From: a virus
Taxonomy: Duplodnaviria > Caudoviricetes
Virus record (IMG/VR): IMGVR_UViG_3300006851_000007
Location: 60,781 to 124,780 of that record
Strand: one strand, 5' to 3'
Length of the DNA stretch: 64,000 nucleotides
Part shown: positions 28,357-64,000 of the stretch, in pieces
Numbering within the stretch: position 1 is the stretch's first letter
How the letters are laid out: every line of letters starts with the position of its first letter
Translations under genes and position numbers: made by a program
The notes under the pieces: generated by a model
What the model was told of the DNA's origin: nothing
Databases searched by the model: none
Seen by the model: the letters and a program-made list of their open reading frames with translations, nothing else

Positions 28357-28430
28357 TCGGAATGGCAGGACTCGAACCTGCGACCTGCGGATTAGGAATC
28401 CGCCGCTCTATCCTGCTGAGCTACATCCCG
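28357..28430 (-). tRNA. tRNA-Arg (anticodon CCT, reads AGG)
   Basis: acceptor CGGGAUG/CAUUCCG; anticodon arm GCGGA-UU CCU AA-UCCGC; GGUUCGAGUCC T-arm; no encoded CCA. Confidence 0.93.
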
Positions 28431-28505
28431 TGGTGGACCTACCCGGACTCGAACCGAGACATGACCTGTTATGAGCAGGTGGCTCTACCATTGAGCTATA
28501 GGTCC
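28431..28505 (-). tRNA. tRNA with CAT anticodon, probably Ile2 (lysidine, reads ATA)
   Basis: acceptor GGACCUA/UAGGUCC + ACCA; anticodon loop CU CAU AA; acceptor stem resembles bacterial tRNA-Ile2 more than fMet/eMet. Confidence 0.85.
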
Positions 28506-28574
28506 AGATAGAGGAGGTTTTGGTGGCCGCGCCAACAGTCACTGTCTGCCTCCTCTCTCACCCTTCAGGGTGAA

Positions 28575-28648
<74 letters not shown>

Positions 28649-28671
28649 ATAGAGAAGTTTTCACTTCTCCT

Positions 28672-54760: not shown

Positions 54761-56449
54761 CTAGATAGCGAGCTCTGATGCCCTTTCAAGGATATTATCA
54801 GTAAAGCTTGTTTTCTCGTCAATTGACTTCCATATTAAATCCTCGATACCTCCGCTCGTTACTCTATACTCCGTTATCTGTTTCGCGCTTGACCCCAATC
54901 TTCTATTTCTGGCCTTTGCTTGATTGTACCCGATCTCACCGTAGTGGGGGGTGTAGAATATCATTGTGGGGGCTTCATTTAGACTGACACCATATTGCAT
55001 GCTCGCCTGGTGTGCTATCAACACCTTCGATTCTCCGCTCCGTACCTTATCAAGCTCTGCCTCAATGTCGGACGTCTCGCCATTTACAACGCTTGGGTTG
55101 TACTCTTTTAGCGCTTCTTTTAACATCCTGAAATCCTCTTTGAACCACGCCCATATAATACACGGATGATCTAAAGAATCGACTATTTTTTTAGTCTCGC
55201 GTAGTTTTGCAGGGTTATCATCAATTTTCTCCAACTCTCCATCGATAATACAAAACCCATTCATGATCTGTCTCAACTTGATTATGTGAGACAATCTCGA
55301 GTTAACCGTAAGCTCTTTGTCATTTATCATAACAAAGTACTCCTTAAGAAGTTGTCTATACTTCTTCTTGATTTTGCTTCCAGGCTCGACATAAACCTCT
55401 TTAATAACCCTCGGAGGTAAATCAAGACATTTCTCCTTGTCTATAAACAAAAGCCTGTCTTTAATTATATCTGCAACCCTCTCTCTAGAATTGTGGGATG
55501 GAATATATATATGAGGATTTCTGGGCAGCTGGTTCATAAACATTTCACGAAACCCGGTCAGTGTAGAGCATGGAAACGGATTATCGAGTAGCTGGAATTG
55601 GTTGTATATCTTCTCCACATCTCCAGGGGTTGCTGAAAACGCAAGCCTAAATGGCACATAATCTCTAAGTTTAATGATGGCTTTAGCTGCTTTGGAACCA
55701 TTACCAATCATCGTGCTTTCATCTAAAATAACCTGGTCAAACCCTGCGTTATAAAAATGATTTCTCTTCTTAGAAAAGGTCCCGGGTGTTGTTATAACAA
55801 TGCTATACTCTTCAGCATAAACCTTATCTTCAGCCTTCTTGTATTTTTTCCACCCCTCATCAGGAACCCTTATATTCCCAAGGTAGTTGTGGGCTATAAT
55901 CACTTTATCTCCAGAATGTGTAAAATCCTGAAAGCTCTTGTACCACGATCTGACAACGGCTTTTGGACAGATAATAAGAGCCCTTTTAATGGTACCTCTT
56001 TGTAGTCTCATGTCTGTTAAAACAGATCCTACAAACGTTTTTCCTGTTCCTGTCCCCGCAGCTAAAAAGCACGTAGGCAAACTCATACACCAGGCTATAG
56101 CAAGCTTCTGATGCTGATATGGTTCGACTCTGAAATCGTAATTAAAAGAGAACGTCTCAGACCTTTTAATACTGCTTGATCTCTCAAGCATTTTTTTCCA
56201 CCCCCTGTAGAACCCTTCGTTTATATATTGCCTCATCTCAGGAACGTCGTCCAGAATTCTACAGACCACCTCCGGATTATCCTTAAATCTCATCCTGCTG
56301 TAATACTTTGTGACCAGAGGATGTTTTATCCTCACGCCTTTGGGTAGCACGAAATGGCCATCCTTTAACTCTAAAAAAGAACCTGAAGTGCGCATTCTAA
56401 GCCTTGAATAATTTCTAATATCTGGGATACTTGGAATAAACAATACCAC
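54761..56449 (-). CDS. SNF2-family (SF2) helicase
   Basis: PYQHQ, GTGTGKT, LIICPK, VILDEST, SATP, LRQI, QAKARNRRLG. Confidence 0.9.
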   Translation of the reverse strand: MVLFIPSIPDIRNYSRLRMRTSGSFLELKDGHFVLPKGVRIKHPLVTKYYSRMRFKDNPEVVCRILDDVPEMRQYINEGFYRGWKKMLERSSSIKRSETFSFNYDFRVEPYQHQKLAIAWCMSLPTCFLAAGTGTGKTFVGSVLTDMRLQRGTIKRALIICPKAVVRSWYKSFQDFTHSGDKVIIAHNYLGNIRVPDEGWKKYKKAEDKVYAEEYSIVITTPGTFSKKRNHFYNAGFDQVILDESTMIGNGSKAAKAIIKLRDYVPFRLAFSATPGDVEKIYNQFQLLDNPFPCSTLTGFREMFMNQLPRNPHIYIPSHNSRERVADIIKDRLLFIDKEKCLDLPPRVIKEVYVEPGSKIKKKYRQLLKEYFVMINDKELTVNSRLSHIIKLRQIMNGFCIIDGELEKIDDNPAKLRETKKIVDSLDHPCIIWAWFKEDFRMLKEALKEYNPSVVNGETSDIEAELDKVRSGESKVLIAHQASMQYGVSLNEAPTMIFYTPHYGEIGYNQAKARNRRLGSSAKQITEYRVTSGGIEDLIWKSIDEKTSFTDNILERASELAI

Positions 56450-56456
56450 AATTTGA

Positions 56457-56936
56457 GTGATAATGACTATGAAGAAGGCATCTGACTACCTCCACCCAGG
56501 GGGCAAGTTTAGTAGAAAAAGCATATCTTACAACACCAGGGAGGTCCAGAAGAAGAAAGACATCACAGAGGCCACCATTGATCATCTCGTGGAAAATGGT
56601 ATGTACGACGGTGATAGGCCTCGGTACAGATACCAATGCCCAACAACCAGACCGTGTCCATTTGTTGGATGCAGATACCACCTGTATCTGGACGTCACAA
56701 ATAGTGGGGCAATAAAATTCAATTTTTACCCCATGGAGCCGCACGAGATCACCTCATCTTGTGCTTTGGACGTTGTCGACCAACACCCAGAAGGAATGAG
56801 GTACCTCCACATAGGAGAGCATATAAGGGTAACAAGAGAAAGGGTGAGACAGATAGAGAAAGAAGCTCTAAAAAAGTTAGCCCAGCATCCAGAGGTTCTG
56901 GAATATATGGGCACAAAGGAGACAGATGATGAGTAG
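56457..56936 (+). CDS. sigma-70 region-4 HTH protein with Cys/His-rich N-terminal domain
   Basis: RPCPFVGCRYHLYLDV..SCALDV..IGEHIRVTRERVRQIEKEALKKL. Confidence 0.8.
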   Translation: MIMTMKKASDYLHPGGKFSRKSISYNTREVQKKKDITEATIDHLVENGMYDGDRPRYRYQCPTTRPCPFVGCRYHLYLDVTNSGAIKFNFYPMEPHEITSSCALDVVDQHPEGMRYLHIGEHIRVTRERVRQIEKEALKKLAQHPEVLEYMGTKETDDE

Positions 56937-58050
56937 ACCGTTCAATCTTTATAAGTACCCTCCAATCACCCTCGAGGTAAAGTACGGAGAGAGAACATCC
57001 AGAGCTGCAAAAAGATTGCAGTATTTCAAGATAGTAACAAGAGAAAGGCACCGAGAGGGAGGTGTAGACAACTATGCTGTTTGCCAGGAGCCTATCGACA
57101 AGCTTATTGAGATGGGGGTTGACGGCATCACTGTGGATGAAAATGGAAATAAGTGGCCCACGGTGATTCCTATAAGGCTTATATCTGACTCTATGCAGGA
57201 GAGTTTTAACTTATTTAGAGGGTTTTACAATAGGAGTGGAGTACTCGGTTGCGGACAGCAATACGGAGAAGAGAAGGCTCTTAGGAGGTGGTACCACTTC
57301 CCAGATTTTGGAGTCGACGCCAATGCTCCTGACAGAGTTAAGGAAGAGGTTATGGCAAACCACAAATTGCCATACGAGGTTGACTGCACAGAGAATTGTC
57401 CGTACTGGAACACCAGCGGTCAAACAAAGTGCGATATAGCAGGAACCCTATATTTCCATCTTGATGAATCCCTGCCGTTCTGCAACAGGTTGGCAGCACT
57501 CAGAGTCAAGGGAACCTTTGCGAAAAGAATTCTTGAATCATCCCTATCCCTGTTACACAAAAAATCTGGAGGTATTCTTGCCAATATACCTCTGAATTTA
57601 AGAATTCACTATGAACTCAAGAGAGCTCAAGATGGTAAGCACTACTCTGTGCCCATGATTACTCTTGAACACAGGGGCTCTATCGATAATTTTCTAGACG
57701 AGGTTGCACAAGAGGTTGACAGAAGAAAGAGGAGGTTTACAACAATAAATATGAGAGAGCCTGAGAATCTTAGCGAGCTTCTTATTGAAGGAGTACTGTC
57801 AGAAATCAACTCCCGTGATGCAATCATCCACAGCGTCGAGGAGGTGGATTTTGAGATGCTTAACGAGGGTGACGACAGTAATGCTATCTCAGAAGAGGTG
57901 CGAAGTATCGCTGGCGACGATTTTAGTGACCAGCTAATCAGAATGGCAGTCCAGAAGTTTACCGAAGAGGGAGAACTGAACATTGACAAACTTAAAGAGT
58001 TTTTTGAAGAGAAAAGGAAAGAAAGAGGCGAGCAGCTCTTTGAGTTCTAA
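56926..58050 (+). CDS. Gp3-like / recombination-directionality-factor-like protein
   Basis: YFKIVTRER, IPIRLISD, Cys cluster, GTLYF, LANIPLNL; adjacent to a PD-(D/E)XK nuclease. Confidence 0.55.
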   Translation: MMSRPFNLYKYPPITLEVKYGERTSRAAKRLQYFKIVTRERHREGGVDNYAVCQEPIDKLIEMGVDGITVDENGNKWPTVIPIRLISDSMQESFNLFRGFYNRSGVLGCGQQYGEEKALRRWYHFPDFGVDANAPDRVKEEVMANHKLPYEVDCTENCPYWNTSGQTKCDIAGTLYFHLDESLPFCNRLAALRVKGTFAKRILESSLSLLHKKSGGILANIPLNLRIHYELKRAQDGKHYSVPMITLEHRGSIDNFLDEVAQEVDRRKRRFTTINMREPENLSELLIEGVLSEINSRDAIIHSVEEVDFEMLNEGDDSNAISEEVRSIAGDDFSDQLIRMAVQKFTEEGELNIDKLKEFFEEKRKERGEQLFEF

Positions 58051-59245
58051 TGAGGCTGCAGAAATCATCCTGGAGAATAACCTCAACCCGAAGGATGGGC
58101 CTTATTCATTCTCAACTCTCGAGTTGTGCCCCCTGTCTTTCAAGTTCTATAAGATTGACAAAAAGCCTGGAGCTACCATCACTAGATTTGGAACTGATGT
58201 TGGTCAGGCAAAACACATACTTGCAGAGCATGATGTCAGAATGAGAATGACCCTCCCCGCAGACAAGTGGATCTCTGCAGAGGTTATGGTTGATAGGCTC
58301 ATCCAGAAGATGCCTCAGTACATTGAGTATATCGATGATCTTACCAGCTCTCTTCAGAAGTTCAGGTTTAATTTCGACATCGATTCAGACAAATATCTAG
58401 AGAGTGAGCTTAGACTTGGTTGTGACTTCAACATGAAACCCACCAAGTTTGATGACCCCTCTTGCTGGTTTAGGGGTCTTGCTGACTATATTGAGGTATC
58501 TAACGGCATCGCCAGGCTGGTCGACTTTAAGAACTACCCCACCATCCACTCCGATGCCCAAATACTTGATATCTCAGAAGGGGTAGGAAGGCAGCTGTTT
58601 GGATACGGCGCACTTCTTATGGCCGCGTTTCCACAAATCACCGGCTTTTATTATGAGGTCTACTACTTTAGATACGGAGTATCAAAGAGGCCTTTTTATA
58701 AAAACGAAGCCGGAGAGATGGAGCTAAAGGTATTTGAAAGGAGTGACGTTGAATCGTGGTGGAAAAACAACCAGAGAAAAATGCTGGCATTTGAAATGCT
58801 TGATGAGTACACCCCAGCCCCATCACAAAGAAAGTGCCAATACTGCAGCTATGTAAATGATTGCACATGGATGAACACAGAAAGGGGCGAGTCTGATGTT
58901 ATTGTGACTACAGACGAAGAGGCGCACAACAATCTTAAAAAGCTCATCATTCTAGAGGAGCAAAGAGAAAGGATTAGGTCGGCGCTAAAAGAGTATGTCG
59001 CAAAAGACAAAGGGTTTATAGAGAGCGAAGATTACTTTTTTGGATACAAAGAAACTGAATCTTCCTCCATAGACCCGAAGGTGTTTATGGATATATGTAG
59101 AAACGCAAACATAGATCCAAGTAAATATGTTAGTGTCACCTCAACTAATATTAACAAGGTCAAGAAGCTTCTTGATGAGGCATCGCTAAAGAAAATGGAA
59201 GATGCTATCATTGTAAAGAAGAGGACACGATTTAGCTCGAGGTGA
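57983..59245 (+). CDS. PD-(D/E)XK RecB/Cas4-like exonuclease
   Basis: SFSTLELCP, FRGLADY, LVDFK, QL..YG, CQYCSYVNDC; start may be TTG 58040. Confidence 0.85.
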   Translation: MTNLKSFLKRKGKKEASSSLSSNEAAEIILENNLNPKDGPYSFSTLELCPLSFKFYKIDKKPGATITRFGTDVGQAKHILAEHDVRMRMTLPADKWISAEVMVDRLIQKMPQYIEYIDDLTSSLQKFRFNFDIDSDKYLESELRLGCDFNMKPTKFDDPSCWFRGLADYIEVSNGIARLVDFKNYPTIHSDAQILDISEGVGRQLFGYGALLMAAFPQITGFYYEVYYFRYGVSKRPFYKNEAGEMELKVFERSDVESWWKNNQRKMLAFEMLDEYTPAPSQRKCQYCSYVNDCTWMNTERGESDVIVTTDEEAHNNLKKLIILEEQRERIRSALKEYVAKDKGFIESEDYFFGYKETESSSIDPKVFMDICRNANIDPSKYVSVTSTNINKVKKLLDEASLKKMEDAIIVKKRTRFSSR

Positions 59246-59248
59246 TAT

Positions 59249-59677
59249 ATGAATGAAGGTGATTTTTTCAAAAAAACCGTAGAGAGTATCGATAACCTCG
59301 GTACATCCTCTATTGAAAGTTCTAGAGGTCATGACCTTAATATCGTCATGGTAGACATTAACCACAGAACAGGAGACGACGGTAACAAAAACACGATTAT
59401 ACTTGTATATGTAAGGCCAGACATAAACCCGCAGACTGTTTATAGACCTCTGGTTATGACTTGCCAGAGGTTGTTTGGGGCAAAGAGGGATACTCGCTAT
59501 TTCGAGACATCTTTTATACCCAAAAATAGCGTTCAGCTGTCAACAGGGGAGTCTGGCGATTTCGATTGCTTTGATATCGTTATCAAATACCCGAAAAGCA
59601 TGCTGTACGATATTGATGGTCTCAAGTCTGTATTTCTTACAGAGTTTAATAGAAATTTAGATAAAGTGGGGAGATAA
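59249..59677 (+). CDS. hypothetical protein
   Basis: GAGG RBS, operonic. Confidence 0.55.
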   Translation: MNEGDFFKKTVESIDNLGTSSIESSRGHDLNIVMVDINHRTGDDGNKNTIILVYVRPDINPQTVYRPLVMTCQRLFGAKRDTRYFETSFIPKNSVQLSTGESGDFDCFDIVIKYPKSMLYDIDGLKSVFLTEFNRNLDKVGR

Positions 59678-60093
59678 TGCTTGAGTGGGTTGAGGTGGCT
59701 GACGGTATTGTGAGGTTTGGGGACCTCTACTCCACGTCAAACTTCGACCCCACTCCTGAGGATATTGAGAGGATTCTCAATATTGCGAAAAAGAGTGGGG
59801 CTATTGGTATTGTTCGTCACGGAAAAGACACCCTGGTTTTTAAAGACGGCGAATTTCTTAAAAATGGCGAGTATATAAAGACCCCCCTGCACCCACCCTT
59901 CGCCTCTATCACTGAGTGTAGAATTATTGACAGGATGTCTTGTGGTAAGAAGTATGACATTGATACCATGCTGAAGATTGTGAACGAGCTTTGTGGTAAT
60001 GAAAGGCTTCTAAATAAAATGGTGGAGGAGCATTACCTGGAGAAGGTTGATGGTAAATACACCCTCCTGTGGGGGTGCGACAATAGGAGGTAG
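59677..60093 (+). CDS. hypothetical protein
   Basis: TAATG coupling. Confidence 0.55.
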   Translation: MLEWVEVADGIVRFGDLYSTSNFDPTPEDIERILNIAKKSGAIGIVRHGKDTLVFKDGEFLKNGEYIKTPLHPPFASITECRIIDRMSCGKKYDIDTMLKIVNELCGNERLLNKMVEEHYLEKVDGKYTLLWGCDNRR

Positions 60094-60095
60094 CT

Positions 60096-60512
60096 GTGAC
60101 TCGAGCTTTTAGGCATGTTGACACATTAATTTCAGAAGCCGCCTCAGACTATGAGTGTGAGGCGTGTGGGTCAGGAATAGCTAAAGGGTCTGTTCACCGC
60201 AATGAGTATGCATTCAGGAGGGGTGTTCAAACATCGCACCGACTGTGTCTTGAGTGTGGAGATCTTTTTGATTTAAAAAAAGACATAGATTTTCTCGATC
60301 TTCCTGATTATATATCAGGCCTGGAAGCCAAGGTTGTGGCTAGAGATGTCAGGAAGTTTAAATTCATGCTGAGGTATATAGCCACAGTAATGAAAAAGAG
60401 TTCAGATATATCCGACTTCCTTCGGTCAGTCATGAGTGAGGTCAGAAAGAATGAAATCGAATCAAAGTGGAGCGGCTCAGACGACAAATATATATTCAAA
60501 AGTGAGCTATGA
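60096..60512 (+). CDS. zinc-finger hypothetical protein
   Basis: CEAC...CLEC; AGGAGG RBS + GTG. Confidence 0.6.
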   Translation: MTRAFRHVDTLISEAASDYECEACGSGIAKGSVHRNEYAFRRGVQTSHRLCLECGDLFDLKKDIDFLDLPDYISGLEAKVVARDVRKFKFMLRYIATVMKKSSDISDFLRSVMSEVRKNEIESKWSGSDDKYIFKSEL

Positions 60513-60796
60513 ACTCGTCCACATCGAGTCACAACCACATCCATAATGGTGCAATAATGGAAGATATTTTTAATGTCACTTGCCCGAAGTGTGGGTCTAG
60601 TGATGTCCAGTATATTGTTAGAGGGTTCGCTTCATTTGATAGACCCCAAATGGGGAGTATGGGCAATGTTTATACAAAATCTATAAGCGATTTTGAAATT
60701 AGTAGTGAGGCTGACTACCCCTTCTCTTGCCATGAATGTATGGAGAGGTTCACAAAGGAAGATATACTTAAAACTGGAGAGTATGATGGGGTTTAA
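60509..60796 (+). CDS. zinc-ribbon hypothetical protein
   Basis: CPKCGS...CHEC. Confidence 0.6.
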   Translation: MNSSTSSHNHIHNGAIMEDIFNVTCPKCGSSDVQYIVRGFASFDRPQMGSMGNVYTKSISDFEISSEADYPFSCHECMERFTKEDILKTGEYDGV

Positions 60797-60977
60797 AAAG
60801 CTGTTTTCAAAAGCTGTCACCAGTATCCCTACGAGCAGCAGGGAGGTCGGTGAAAGACTTGTATACATAATGTCTGGCCAAGCTCTTGTGGACACCGCAG
60901 AAGCTACCGTAGAGGAGGTTGAGGAGTTCTTAGACGGTGTCGCAAAAGCTCTGGAGGGTGATGATAAAGATGGCTAA
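60783..60977 (+). CDS. small hypothetical protein
   Basis: GGAG RBS before ATG 60783 (ORF track starts at 60693). Confidence 0.5.
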   Translation: MMGFKKLFSKAVTSIPTSSREVGERLVYIMSGQALVDTAEATVEEVEEFLDGVAKALEGDDKDG

Positions 60978-61003
60978 ATTCACACCCCGTTTTGCGTTAT
61001 AAT
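60973..61003 (+). promoter_or_regulatory. GCTAAA-N19-TATAAT promoter
   Basis: motif match. Confidence 0.7.
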
Positions 61004-61160
61004 AATAGTGTAGGAGGAAATACCTTCTACCTCTTGGGGAGTAATACCCTTAACCTCAAGATGAAACCAAGGGGTGCCCTCATGTGGCAATATCAACTAT
61101 AGGACATCTGTTGCCGGATGTTGAAGTGTTGAGAATAATCCGCATGAGAAAGGACAGCGA

Positions 61161-61514
61161 ATGAAAATTATTCGCTTAACCCGCCACGAGGCCGAAGAGG
61201 CGCAACGAATCGCCCTCAAAAAGGCCTTCGGTGAGGACTGCGAGATTAAAACGATCTCAGAATCCTTACCGATGAATACTCGTGAAGCCGTAGCTCGCTT
61301 TGACGAGCTCGTTGGGGACGCCCAGGTGGTTGAGGCAGTATTGCCCGTAAACCTCCTTGAAGCGATCCTCAAGTTCACTGAGTTCTCGAAAGGTGGCGGA
61401 GTCGTCCTCCGTTCTGTCATGGACCGCAAGGTCGATGACAACGGATCAGTCAACTTCACCTTCAACCACTACGAGGTGGTGAAGAAGATCGAAGTTGTCA
61501 CTGAACCGCTCTAG
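61161..61514 (+). CDS. hypothetical protein (early-type, CGN codon usage)
   Basis: AAGGA RBS; all Arg codons are CGN. Confidence 0.65.
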   Translation: MKIIRLTRHEAEEAQRIALKKAFGEDCEIKTISESLPMNTREAVARFDELVGDAQVVEAVLPVNLLEAILKFTEFSKGGGVVLRSVMDRKVDDNGSVNFTFNHYEVVKKIEVVTEPL

Positions 61515-61781
61515 CGGTGACGGCGAGGGGGAATAGTCAACCCCCGATAACATCGGTGCTGCTCACGTTAAAGCAGACGCCCTGAGGAGGGCGTGAGTTT
61601 GACGGACTCTAACTAAGTTGGTAACAACATCCTCAATCTCGCATATCAAGCGAGATTACGGGAGCAGTGAGGTGGTACTCATCGACTGCCGATGATGTGT
61701 ACTACCTGTTACGGTGATCGGCAGGCCCTGTGGTATGGCTTCTACCACCGTCCGACTCACCCAGACGTTGAATTGGGTGAG
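61515..61781 (+). ncRNA. candidate structured RNA / hairpin array
   Basis: about 9 consecutive stem-loops and no ORF. Confidence 0.4.
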
Positions 61782-61814
61782 AGTCCTAAGCATGACTATA
61801 AACTGCTTTTTTTT
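61782..61814 (+). terminator. pseudoknot + U-tract element, copy 1
   Basis: AGTC-CTA-AGCA-T-GACT-ATAAAC-TGCT-T-run. Confidence 0.6.
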
Positions 61815-61825
61815 ACTTAGATAGG

Positions 61826-61856
61826 GCTAAATACTGGGGGCCATTTACGACATAAT
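61826..61856 (+). promoter_or_regulatory. GCTAAA-N19-CATAAT promoter
   Basis: motif match. Confidence 0.65.
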
Positions 61857-61860
61857 ATAT

Positions 61861-62814
61861 ATGAAGGAAAGAAAGTGGTTCTTTCCAGATATCTCAGAGG
61901 AGAGAGATATGGATTTAAAGGCATTTCTTGCCGCCGGAATAGGTGGCAAGTCTAACTCCTTTGCAGAGGACGAAAAGTCCTCTGTGGAGGAGTTCAGTCC
62001 CTTAACCAAGGAGGAGGTTTACGCCTCCTTGGTTGAACAGGGGGTTGAAGACCCCCTCCGTGCCAACCCAATGTATTGGCACCAGACCCTCCTCGACAAC
62101 AAGGATGTTGTCGAGGATAGAAAACTAGCTCAGAAAGAGATCTATCATGAGCTCTTTCTGAGCAAAAATGCGCCCCTTAAAGGGCGCAGCCACCTCCGGT
62201 GGCAAAGTGTAAGGCACGACTGTAAAGTCGTGCTGGTCGTCGGGGATGACAACCCCGACGTCTACTGGGGGGAAGAAGGAGAGGGGGAGTGGTCCCTCTT
62301 CTTTATCGGTGTGGGGGGACACCGAAAACTCAAGGTGAGGGGGGAACTCAAGGTGGAGGGGTACCTTGAGGTTCCTGAAAACCCAATGAGGAGCCTCTTT
62401 GAGAAAGAAGCCTCCCTCAAAGGGTGGAGGAGCGCTTACAGAGAAGCGCTCCGCGAACTCGAGAGAGTTCAAAGGTCAGAGGTGTCCATCCTCCAAGAGA
62501 GGGTGGATGAGGAGCTCGTGAAATCCCAGTATATGGGATTTTGCGATAGCTTTGTAAAGCACAGGACGGTGACAAAAGTCACCGTCCTGGGGAAAGAGCT
62601 CGTCGAGGTCGAGGTCAATGACCCTGACCACGACGAGATCGTATCCATGGCTGAGGAGGAGGCCATGGAGTATAGAAGTAAAGCCCTCAAGGATGCCGAA
62701 GAGGCCTTCAGTAAGGCCTCCGAGGAGGTTGAGGATACCCTTCGGCCGTACAGGAGGGCGGTCGAGGAGTATCAAAAGGAGGTTGATGCTATGATTGCAA
62801 AATGGCAATCATAG
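61861..62814 (+). CDS. hypothetical Glu-rich coiled-coil protein
   Basis: 317-aa ORF; likely start ATG 61909 after GAGGAG. Confidence 0.65.
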   Translation: MKERKWFFPDISEERDMDLKAFLAAGIGGKSNSFAEDEKSSVEEFSPLTKEEVYASLVEQGVEDPLRANPMYWHQTLLDNKDVVEDRKLAQKEIYHELFLSKNAPLKGRSHLRWQSVRHDCKVVLVVGDDNPDVYWGEEGEGEWSLFFIGVGGHRKLKVRGELKVEGYLEVPENPMRSLFEKEASLKGWRSAYREALRELERVQRSEVSILQERVDEELVKSQYMGFCDSFVKHRTVTKVTVLGKELVEVEVNDPDHDEIVSMAEEEAMEYRSKALKDAEEAFSKASEEVEDTLRPYRRAVEEYQKEVDAMIAKWQS

Positions 62815-62824
62815 CATCAACCTC
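62779..62824. repeat. perfect 20-bp inverted repeat
   Basis: GAGGTTGATGCTATGATTGC-aaaatg-GCAATCATAGCATCAACCTC. Confidence 0.9.
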
Positions 62825-62825
62825 A

Positions 62826-62857
62826 AGACCTGAGCAAGTCTATAAACTGCTTTTTTT
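62826..62857 (+). terminator. pseudoknot + U-tract element, copy 2
   Basis: AGAC-CTG-AGCA-A-GTCT-ATAAAC-TGCT-T-run. Confidence 0.6.
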
Positions 62858-62868
62858 ACTTAGTCAGT

Positions 62869-62899
62869 GCTAAATATCAATACCCCTTTCTGGTATAAT
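62869..62899 (+). promoter_or_regulatory. GCTAAA-N19-TATAAT promoter
   Basis: motif match with extended TGG before the -10. Confidence 0.7.
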
Positions 62900-62904
62900 A
62901 TATA

Positions 62905-63345
62905 TGAAGGAGTAAACACCTTCGAGGTTGTTGGGAGACCTTAACTCCCATTGCACCCAACCGGGCTTCGCCAGAAAGTTTCTGGCCTCATACGGAGAGT
63001 GGTATGGGTACCACCTAAAGGACGCCTGGGAAACGTCGCTCCCTATCTAGGGAGAAGTACCCCGAGCCTGCTGTCGGTACCAGCAGGACAAGAGGCAAGC
63101 AGTGATCCAAATCTCTGGAACACCTGGTTGCATGAATCCAACCAAAAGTCCTCTTGGGTTACCTCGATTGATACCACGAGGCCATCTCGGTATCCGCACC
63201 TTTCACGAGGGTGCGTACTTCTCCGGCGACTCGCTGCCGGTGGGCTAAGGCTCAAACGCGAGGGGTGCTAGGCCCTCTGGGGAAGTTCCAGAGGGGCGCT
63301 CAAACCCAAAAGGTTTGACCTATACCAATTCGGATAGGTCCACTA
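62905..63345 (+). ncRNA. candidate structured RNA / long hairpin-array leader
   Basis: about 440 nt after a promoter with 10 or more stem-loops; shares modules with 61515-61781 and 63963-64000. Confidence 0.45.
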
Positions 63346-63362
63346 AAGCAAGGAGTGAATCC

Positions 63363-63809
63363 TTGGCCATCATCATCATCGACGGGTCTCATGTGGACCA
63401 CGTCGATGCGGATGTTCTCGACGCGATCCTGGATCGCTACGAGGGCCGAGAGTTCGCTGACCAGCTCTTCATCGAATCCTTCGAGGTTCCGGGAATCCAA
63501 CTTGAGTGTGGAATCCATGGACCCTCGATGGGAGATGAACCCGTCCAAGAGGACGAGGTCTACTACGCCGTTCGCGGTGATCGCAAGTGGACCTCTCGTA
63601 TGGTCGACCGCCCCGTGCGGAAGACCGATCTTGTGACGGTGATCGCTGGCCCCGCTCCCGGTGTCGTTGAGGGCAATCTTGCCCTCTACACGACCTACGG
63701 CGGTCCTCTGGCTCCTCGTGAGCCAGAGGACCCTTCAATCGGGAGCGAGGAGGAGCTTCAGGAGTCGAAAGACTTCTGGGCTCTTCACGCACTCTCTCCC
63801 AACTCGTGA
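63363..63809 (+). CDS. hypothetical acidic protein (early-type, high GC3)
   Basis: AAGGAG RBS favours TTG 63363 (ORF track 63315); CGN/ATC codons. Confidence 0.65.
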   Translation: MAIIIIDGSHVDHVDADVLDAILDRYEGREFADQLFIESFEVPGIQLECGIHGPSMGDEPVQEDEVYYAVRGDRKWTSRMVDRPVRKTDLVTVIAGPAPGVVEGNLALYTTYGGPLAPREPEDPSIGSEEELQESKDFWALHALSPNS

Positions 63810-63882
63810 GAGAAGGTCCGCCCGCCACCGTCGAATAAATAAGATGGGTGGCCGAGCTAACCACTTGGGAACAGAACGGTCA

Positions 63883-63915
63883 AGACCTTAGCAAGTCTAT
63901 AAACTGCTTTTTTTT
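63883..63915 (+). terminator. pseudoknot + U-tract element, copy 3
   Basis: AGAC-CTT-AGCA-A-GTCT-ATAAAC-TGCT-T-run. Confidence 0.6.
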
Positions 63916-63926
63916 GCCTAGTCGGT

Positions 63927-63956
63927 GCTAAACAACAGCACCCTTTCTGGTATAAT
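63927..63956 (+). promoter_or_regulatory. GCTAAA-N18-TATAAT promoter
   Basis: motif match; shares CCCTTTCTGGTATAAT with the 62869 copy. Confidence 0.7.
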
Positions 63957-64000
63957 GTATGTGGACGCCTGAGAAGCGTCGCTCTCTCTATCTAGGGGGA

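Follow-up and report, generated by a model that had tools for sequence, protein, structure and literature searches.

Why would a phage place the same small, knotted RNA sequence between consecutive gene cassettes, each time directly ahead of a promoter? The question is raised by the end of the window analysed here, a stretch of DNA that forms the final 64 kb of a 124,780-bp IMG/VR virus record. An earlier note on this DNA had pointed to an H-type pseudoknot that occurs three times, at 61782, 62826 and 63883, each copy leading into a U-tract, and had proposed that it is a terminator, a block to 3' exonucleases or a switch whose topology recalls preQ1-I aptamers. A degenerate pattern built on the motif has exactly three matches in the window, all on the + strand (61782-61807, 62826-62851 and 63883-63908), and none in 100 shuffles of it; the starts of consecutive copies lie 1044 and 1057 nucleotides (nt) apart, in agreement with the spacing of about 1.05 kb that had been given. 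The note had also suggested a covariance model as a check, and a search of the whole record with such a model returned a fourth copy outside the window, at G000:C1:10412. As described below, the motif represents a real, strand-specific and very compact RNA pseudoknot family of phages. The copies in the window are as follows.

61782-61808, + strand: pseudoknot copy 1 (model R1, 51.5 bits)
61782-61808, + strand, anatomy of copy 1: stem 1, 61782-61785 with 61794-61797; loop CU; stem 2, 61788-61792 with 61804-61808; 1-nt junction; loop AUAAAC
62826-62852, + strand: pseudoknot copy 2 (53.4 bits), beginning 11 nt past the stop codon of the open reading frame (ORF) 61861-62814
63883-63909, + strand: pseudoknot copy 3 (51.6 bits), in which bases 7 and 27 form a U-U mismatch

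The motif spans 27 nt and is built from a stem 1 of 3-4 bp, a loop 1 with the sequence CU, a stem 2 of 5 bp, a one-base junction, and a loop 3 of 5-7 nt that has AAAC at its end. Stem 1 reads as originally described (AGTC/GACT in copy 1, AGAC/GTCT in copies 2 and 3), whereas stem 2 had to be refined from four pairs to five: as suggested by RNAfold, base 7 of the motif pairs with base 27, the first T after TGCT, giving the stem 2 consensus RAGYA with URCUY, and because base 7 is paired in this manner only CU is left in loop 1. The 7-27 pair is A-U in copy 1 and G-U in copy 2, with the mismatch listed above in copy 3. Among the relatives described below, nearly all have CU as loop 1, the junction base is variable (A 39, U 41, G 7, C 5), and the outermost pair of stem 1 is frequently unpaired. 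The junction-side C-G pair of stem 1 was preset in most of the search patterns and is kept in all inspected copies that were found by the model; overall, the invariant bases gather at the junction of the two stems. Covariation of triple pairs between loop 1 and stem 2 was considered and was not shown, as by eye CU stays in most stem 2 variants, with two carrying CC or UU. Nested folds of the motif alone reach -2.4 to -4.2 kcal/mol (-2.4, -4.2 and -2.9 kcal/mol for the three window copies), with z-scores of about 0.

Three copies with a single covarying position are weak evidence by themselves; it is the relatives that establish the structure. An exact 17-mer scan of viral contigs located two further large phage contigs that carry the same 26 nt; in one of them, a C-to-U change in stem 2 yields a G-U pair. 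When the loops and stem 2 were held fixed and stem 1 was left free, at least 3 of 4 stem 1 pairs were present in 39 of 44 viral loci (15% expected by chance), formed by many different pair combinations, and when stem 2 was left free, 9 of 9 loci contained four complementary stem 2 pairs, with fully compensated variants such as AGUA/UACU, GACA/UGUC and UAUC/GAUA. A scan of one genome per prokaryote species that did not require the T-run produced 121 hits, 44 of them with 4 of 4 stem 1 pairs as compared to 2.4 expected; about half of the 121 appear chance-like, as the size of the database predicts. The alignment of 87 distinct instances has a covariation score of 0.41-0.46, as compared to 0.14-0.17 in shuffles (0 of 500 reach it) and at most 0.13 in slid controls, although these instances were partly chosen for pairing, so that the score alone is biased. 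Free of this bias is the 7-27 pair, which was never used in any scan or filter: it is paired in about 91% of the 87 instances (AU 38, GC 29, GU 11, UA 1, unpaired 8). A replicate scan was directed at a disjoint subfamily, in which the first base of loop 3 is not A, and required neither stem 1 pairing nor the T-run; it gave at least 120 loci. Among the matches listed, both free inner stem 1 pairs are complementary in 118 of 122 distinct instances (14% by chance), and the 7-27 pair is GC in 83, AU in 13, GU in 12 and unpaired in 10 (n=118). G-U pairs are frequent (22 + 11 of 87) and would be C-A on the other strand, which argues that the knot is RNA, or at least a single strand, of + sense. The covariation that had been read from three copies is therefore real once the relatives are added, and the H-type pseudoknot on the + strand is borne out.

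The family counts over 200 distinct instances, found in contigs of phages, prophages and metagenome assemblies, with 1-7 copies per genome and often several within a few kb. Its named carriers include 41 Staphylococcus phage records (phiJB, phiETA3, 96 and phiNM4 among them), the Synechococcus phages S-CRM01 and S-EIVl, Geobacillus phage GR1, the Moraxella phages Mcat1, 2, 4 and 5, a crAss-like gut phage, and phages of Clostridium, Streptococcus and Stenotrophomonas. Carrier contigs are also binned with Saccharibacteria and other lineages of the candidate phyla radiation, and with Bacteroidota, Bacillota and Pseudomonadota. The annotated neighbours of the knot are phage genes, and a 33-nt query against E. 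coli genomes found no match. One metagenome-assembled contig of the Selenomonadaceae (L105:247-3877) carries five knots in 3.6 kb with few long ORFs, and a GGCACC-like word occurs within about 10 nt behind four of the five; this locus may be a knot-punctuated array of small RNAs.

The position of the knot relative to its neighbours follows sharp rules. Of the 93 instances in a first set, 42 are found 4-9 nt behind the stop codon of a co-directional open frame, the distance being 5 nt in 15 cases, 6 nt in 11, 7 nt in 7 and 8 nt in 6, with one at 4 nt and none nearer. The replicate set, among the matches listed, repeats this distribution (5 nt in 19, 6 nt in 7, 7 nt in 4, 8 nt in 3 and 9 nt in 9, with two below 5 nt); the mode is 5 nt in both sets, and the shape is that of a hard lower bound followed by decay. 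The length of mRNA from the A-site codon to the ribosome entrance is five nucleotides, and the mode taken together with this geometry suggests that the knot sits as near to the stop codon as it can without being unwound by the terminating ribosome. Distances from the knot to the next start codon are broad (14 to 82 nt). The knot is co-oriented with the upstream genes, and several knots are wedged between convergent stop codons. The proteins encoded on either side form no clusters, and Pfam assigns the upstream neighbours to minor capsid protein, Hsp20 and DUF4160 families and the downstream ones to primase-helicase, CHAP lysin, large terminase, scaffold protein and HNH nuclease families; a gene-specific regulator was rejected because the flanking proteins are unclustered and of unrelated families.

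The same module adjoins tRNA genes. An array in S-CRM01 reads tRNA-Ser, knot, tRNA-Met, knot, tRNA-Leu, with the knots occupying spacers of 32-34 nt, and in the same phage a knot lies 3 nt behind tRNA-Tyr and another 3 nt before tRNA-Lys; at two of its loci (L189:1417-1716, Ser/Met/Leu; L190:1417-1530, behind tRNA-Tyr) the spacers are nearly all knot. Same-strand tRNAs also flank knots at seven other loci (L045, L057, L059, L181, L272, L275 and L330), such that in several unrelated phages the knot is found 2-3 nt past and 3-15 nt ahead of same-strand tRNA genes; 7 of 118 instances of the replicate set, among the matches listed, lie within 30 nt of one. The scaffold gene has a knot immediately upstream of it at one Lacticaseibacillus locus and in siphophages of Staphylococcus and Streptococcus, where the major-capsid gene comes next; in Geobacillus phage GR1 the knot closes the lysis genes, standing behind that for holin, and in Streptococcus phage Javan407 an ordinary terminator is located 4 nt upstream of it. 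In phiJB (L186:2487-2527), a feature annotated as 'putative promoter P5R' overlies the knot, which has ORF46 on one side and on the other a DUF4355 gene, with the major capsid gene coming after the latter; this annotation may misread an RNA element. Viewed across the family, the knot is an autonomous module at the 3' flank of a finished unit, be it a gene, a tRNA or a non-coding RNA.

In the window this module is part of a longer repeat, the elements of which are given below.

61756-61781, + strand: 9-bp hairpin directly 5' of copy 1
61807-61814, + strand: T-run of 8 at copy 1, then AC; the T at 61808 forms the fifth stem 2 pair
61827-61856, + strand: promoter 1, CTAAATA box, 17 nt, CATAAT
62779-62824, + strand: perfect 20-bp hairpin across the stop codon of ORF 61861-62814 (z-score -8.9), ending 1 nt 5' of copy 2
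62851-62857, + strand: T-run of 7 at copy 2, then AC
62870-62899, + strand: promoter 2, CTAAATA box, 17 nt, TGG-TATAAT (extended -10)
63908-63915, + strand: T-run of 8 at copy 3, then GC
63928-63956, + strand: promoter 3, CTAAACA box, 16 nt, TGG-TATAAT

The repeat extends past the motif in all three copies, through the T-run (7, 6 and 7 T directly after TGCT in copies 1, 2 and 3), a CTAAAYA box that opens 12-13 nt past it, and a TATAAT-type hexamer 16-17 nt beyond the box, with an extended TG on two of the three hexamers. All three window knots have a hairpin on their 5' side, and the copy at G000:C1:10412 has a strong hairpin upstream and a T-run of 8 and promoter-like sequence behind it; in all four knots of the record a T-run of 7-8 and then a promoter follow, and no nested hairpin is present. 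A terminator scan does not list the three window knots, and there is no GC-rich nested hairpin 0-2 nt before their U-runs. Elsewhere in the genome at least a dozen ordinary terminators consist of a GC-rich hairpin directly followed by an intergenic T-run of 7-8, and two of them share the AC tail with two of the window copies; a few other intergenic T-runs of the genome also lack a strong hairpin. In this genome, then, the knot takes the position of an ordinary terminator hairpin, immediately ahead of a T-run and a promoter, in keeping with the terminator that the earlier note had proposed. The promoters belong to a phage-wide class (CTAAATA box, about 17 nt, (T/G)ATAAT, then usually ATATA). 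Within the listed class only those at 61827, 62870 and 63928 of the window come after a knot, and members at G000:C1 18316, 21423, 27746 and 100386(-) have no T-run upstream, which indicates that the T-run belongs with the knot and not with the promoter. The length of the 62779-62824 hairpin suits an RNase III substrate, and Rfam gives only spurious microRNA-like hits for it. No tRNA gene lies beside the window's copies, its three tRNAs being at 28357-28649.

The three knots close or separate the following cassettes.

61161-61514, + strand: ORF of cassette 1 (117 amino acids, no family), followed by a structured non-coding tail of 267 nt up to copy 1
61861-62814, + strand: ORF of cassette 2 (317 amino acids, no family)
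62906-63809, + strand: cassette 3, with a 409-nt structured leader (62906-63314) and ORF 63315-63809

The non-coding tail of cassette 1 (61515-61781, 267 nt) folds with -108.9 kcal/mol and a z-score of -4.3, and the leader of cassette 3, which lies between promoter 2 and its ORF, with -168.8 kcal/mol and a z-score of -4.6. The leader has no Rfam match and differs from that of a relative by insertions and deletions that are not multiples of three; it is a candidate new structured phage RNA. The ORF behind it (164 amino acids) belongs to phrog_23674, of unknown function. A second, diverged copy of the leader starts at 63963 and continues through G000:C1:1-~200, and the transcript from promoter 3 continues beyond the end of the contig and on into the beginning of the record. 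The last 13 bases of the record (window 63988-64000) equal its first 13 (G000:C1:1-13), and the cassette array resumes at the record start; IMG/VR classes the record as 'linear' with an estimated completeness of 75%, and the record break may fall inside the repeat region. A megablast search of 60900-64000 against phage records gave no match.

Transcript evidence comes from assembled metatranscriptome contigs of a relative about 93% identical, obtained in one compost study; such contigs cannot show true RNA ends, and gaps in their coverage are no proof of anything. They cover the cassette bodies at 61022-61736 (three samples, including the non-coding tail up to that point), 62923-63196 and 63329-63866, and thereby cover the cassette 3 leader. 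They begin 17 nt past the start predicted for promoter 2, and no contig spans a boundary of knot and promoter. This pattern fits separate cassette transcripts and is weak evidence for a terminator role of the knot in this genome.

What, then, does the knot do? We tentatively favor the explanation that it is a compact 3'-end module left folded by ribosomes that stop upstream, and that in this phage it acts as a leaky terminator of pseudoknot type and as a 3' cap within a cassette boundary resembling the promoter-early stem-loops (PeSLs) of T4-type phages. The knot's fold would be mechanically tough and would define and protect the 3' end of the upstream RNA, and since it is placed just beyond the reach of a ribosome that has the stop codon in its A site, it would not be unwound. 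Joined here to a T-run of 6-8 and a sigma-70-type promoter, it would form with them a composite boundary that sets apart small cassettes of ORFan or non-coding content. Stem 2 would zip up right against the U-run, in the place of a terminator hairpin, whereupon RNA polymerase would be released; because the stem is short, this termination would probably be leaky. The knot would then remain on the transcript and block 3' exonucleases. What the data show is the structure of the knot, its strand, its distribution and its rules of placement; termination and protection are inferred.

A number of observations weigh against this explanation. The U-run is not a feature of the family: in the genome set, at least 5 T are present in the 8 nt past the knot in 16 of 50 instances as compared to 6 of 50 at a control position, and in the replicate set, among the matches listed, a T-rich tail is found in 17 of 118, which equals background. 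The U-tract, which had been counted as part of the element, is thus no part of it family-wide (32% and 14%, the second among the matches listed, versus 12% background). T-rich knots often have the ribosome site of the next gene 20-45 nt on, which leaves no room for a promoter. The 32-34-nt tRNA spacers of S-CRM01 are filled by knots, and the knot of Javan407 lies just past an ordinary terminator. A stem 2 of 5 bp with 2-3 G-C pairs lies at the weak end for termination. Finally, the RNA contigs of the relative break off 17-60 nt short of the knot and none includes it, which is not what a stable knot-capped 3' end predicts, with the caveat that contigs cannot show true ends. As an efficient terminator would be harmful inside tRNA arrays, where copies occur, termination is not the general job of the family; the proposed terminator is plausible for this phage and does not hold for the family. 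Three related ideas were rejected. The U-run does not mark operon ends, as a ribosome site and start codon follow within 45 nt equally often for T-rich and T-poor knots; the knot is not the leader of a downstream terminator, as a canonical terminator occurs within about 90 nt downstream in only 1 of 91 instances; and the promoter is not a family feature, as there is no excess of -10 hexamers downstream.

A possible but rather doubtful alternative is that the knot is a punctuation or processing signal for the cutting of polycistronic phage RNA. A host endoribonuclease (RNase E, Y, P or Z) would be guided to the single-stranded spacer beside the knot, or else the knot would self-cleave at its own 5' edge; the window knots would then separate cassette RNAs rather than stop the polymerase. 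RNase P measures 12 bp, and the coaxial stack of the knot, at about 9 bp, falls below this. Its 27 nt are also below the size of any natural self-cleaving ribozyme known to us, no Rfam ribozyme or RNase P-substrate family matches it, and tertiary packing alone could account for the conserved loops. These points have to be set against the knots a few nt from same-strand tRNAs in S-CRM01 and the seven other loci, a placement also reported for the theta ribozymes, of the hepatitis delta virus (HDV)-like type, that adjoin phage tRNAs (PMC10879173), against the loci that contain 2-5 knots in a few kb between non-coding stretches, against the invariant bases gathered at the stem junction, and against the relative's RNA contigs, which end before the knot. 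The bolder form of this idea, in which the knot is a novel, unusually small catalytic or RNase-guiding 'punctuation' RNA that cuts polycistronic phage transcripts at its own edge and frees tRNAs and mRNAs, and would be a functional analogue of theta ribozymes with a different and far smaller fold in phages of many bacterial phyla, strikes us as improbable.

The remaining explanations are all less likely than a processing signal. It is quite unlikely that the knot is a regulated switch, a riboswitch-like aptamer that binds a small ligand or a conserved protein and thereby adjusts how neighbouring genes are terminated or translated. It shares topology, size and an A-rich 3' loop with preQ1-I, which binds its ligand at the helical junction, and the invariant bases of the knot surround that junction; however, there is no Rfam hit, the junction is a single variable base, the flanking genes are unrelated, there is no terminator-type expression platform (the 1 of 91 above), and knots stand inside tRNA arrays. 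The resemblance to preQ1-I that had been pointed out is one of topology only. A translation device is very unlikely. It would be a roadblock at the mRNA entrance of the ribosome, acting by modulating termination, by keeping ribosomes from sliding or re-initiating, or by causing recoding at the stop codon. The spacing of 5-9 nt behind the stop does equal the spacer of frameshift and readthrough pseudoknots, and the architecture is near that of the minimal luteovirus frameshift pseudoknots. Yet no slippery heptamer is present, the spacing shows a hard lower bound with decay and not an optimum, and knots flank tRNAs, where nothing is translated; past the stop, the 0, +1 and -1 frames stay open for a median of only 11, 5 and 16 codons, and recoding was rejected since none is consistently open. 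Least likely of all is an element that acts as DNA and whose RNA fold is incidental: a hot spot of recombination by which cassettes are shuffled, a site for a protein or homing endonuclease, or, in the case of the T-run, an UP element of the promoter. The T-run does occupy the region in which UP elements work, about 43-50 nt ahead of the predicted start; a second copy of the cassette 3 leader follows knot copy 3; and repeated terminator/promoter units of T4-type phages have been proposed to mediate shuffling (PMC2839356, PMC4122927). Against a role in DNA stand the G-U pairs counted above, which in the opposite strand or in recognition of the duplex would amount to C-A mismatches, the shared orientation of knots and upstream genes together with the zone of 5 nt behind stop codons from which knots are excluded, both of which point to RNA and ribosomes, and the same-class promoters that lack a T-run; conservation across phages of unrelated hosts also misfits a phage-specific DNA-binding protein. 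Recombination may still be a by-product.

If the knot and its U-run do terminate transcription or cap 3' ends, as we tentatively favor, they would constitute a pseudoknot terminator or 3' cap in bacteria, and we know of no earlier bacterial pseudoknot that does the work of a terminator hairpin or of an exonuclease-resistant 3' structure. Whatever its function, the knot defines a widespread and very small phage RNA family with strong covariation and no match in Rfam 15, and the sharp rule for its position, no nearer than 5 nt to a preceding stop codon and a few nt from tRNAs, provides a handle on where phage RNA units end. The family is easily tested, being present in cultured phages of Staphylococcus aureus, Synechococcus and Geobacillus, and the 27-nt module could serve as an insulator or RNA-stability part.

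Searches for known counterparts returned little. Rfam 15 contains nothing relevant at E<=1 on 55000-64000 (9 kb) and nothing at E<=10, preQ1-I included, on the 66 nt of 61765-61830; at gathering thresholds, 24 motif-bearing loci yield only tRNAs and one match resembling transfer-messenger RNA (tmRNA). No known self-cleaving ribozyme (hammerhead, twister, pistol, hatchet or HDV-like) matches the window end or these 24 loci, and the motif is not described in the literature covered by our full-text searches. In its fold, the knot is nearest in size and layout to the luteovirus frameshift knots and to preQ1-I, but it fails the tested criteria of both. The minimal luteovirus -1 frameshift pseudoknots (the class of beet western yellows virus, pea enation mosaic virus and sugarcane yellow leaf virus; BWYV, PEMV, ScYLV) are about 26-28 nt long, with a stem 1 of 4-5 bp, a loop 1 of 2 nt, a one-base junction, an A-rich loop 3 of 6-7 nt and conserved bases at the junction. 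The phage knot is like them in size and layout and in lying 5-9 nt downstream of the A-site codon, and unlike them in standing behind a stop codon with no slippery heptamer or extended frame, in being encoded by DNA phages, and in also flanking tRNAs. With preQ1-I (RF00522) it shares a small H-type pseudoknot and an A-rich 3' loop, whereas it does not match the model, its loop 2 is one variable base that lacks the ligand-pairing C, and it has no link to queuosine genes. The theta ribozymes, too, are small pseudoknotted RNAs that lie a few nt from phage tRNA genes and at other intergenic sites; they differ in having a nested double pseudoknot in place of two helices, and their model does not match the knot. 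The gene 32 mRNA of phages T4 and T2 contains an H-type pseudoknot that is gene-specific and protein-specific. It resembles the present knot as an H-type fold in phage mRNA that is often followed by unstructured U/A-rich RNA, and differs from it in that the knot described here adjoins unrelated genes. The gene 32 pseudoknot is mentioned in PMC10690425. As in an intrinsic (Rho-independent) terminator, a T-run of 7-8 abuts a structure behind a stop codon and before a promoter; unlike such a terminator, the knot has no GC-rich nested hairpin, its loops are conserved in sequence, and most family members lack the U-run.

The cassette boundary as a whole has a closer counterpart. PeSLs are composite terminator/promoter cassettes of T4-type phages and are proposed shuffling points (PMC2839356, PMC4122927). 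Like the units of the window, they consist of a short structured element and a T-run directly followed by a sigma-70-like promoter, and they are repeated between small ORFan cassettes in a plastic region of the genome; this combination of structure, T-run and promoter, repeated between cassettes, was found in the three window units and in one elsewhere in the record. They differ in that the structured part here is a sequence-conserved pseudoknot and not a stem-loop, and in that the knot also occurs with neither promoter nor T-run in hundreds of unrelated phages. The one hint of shuffling at the repeats in this record is the duplicated leader of cassette 3. The new part of this boundary is its structured half, absent from Rfam 15 and from the literature searched, and the known part is the terminator/promoter arrangement; the genomic unit of the window is nearest to the PeSLs.

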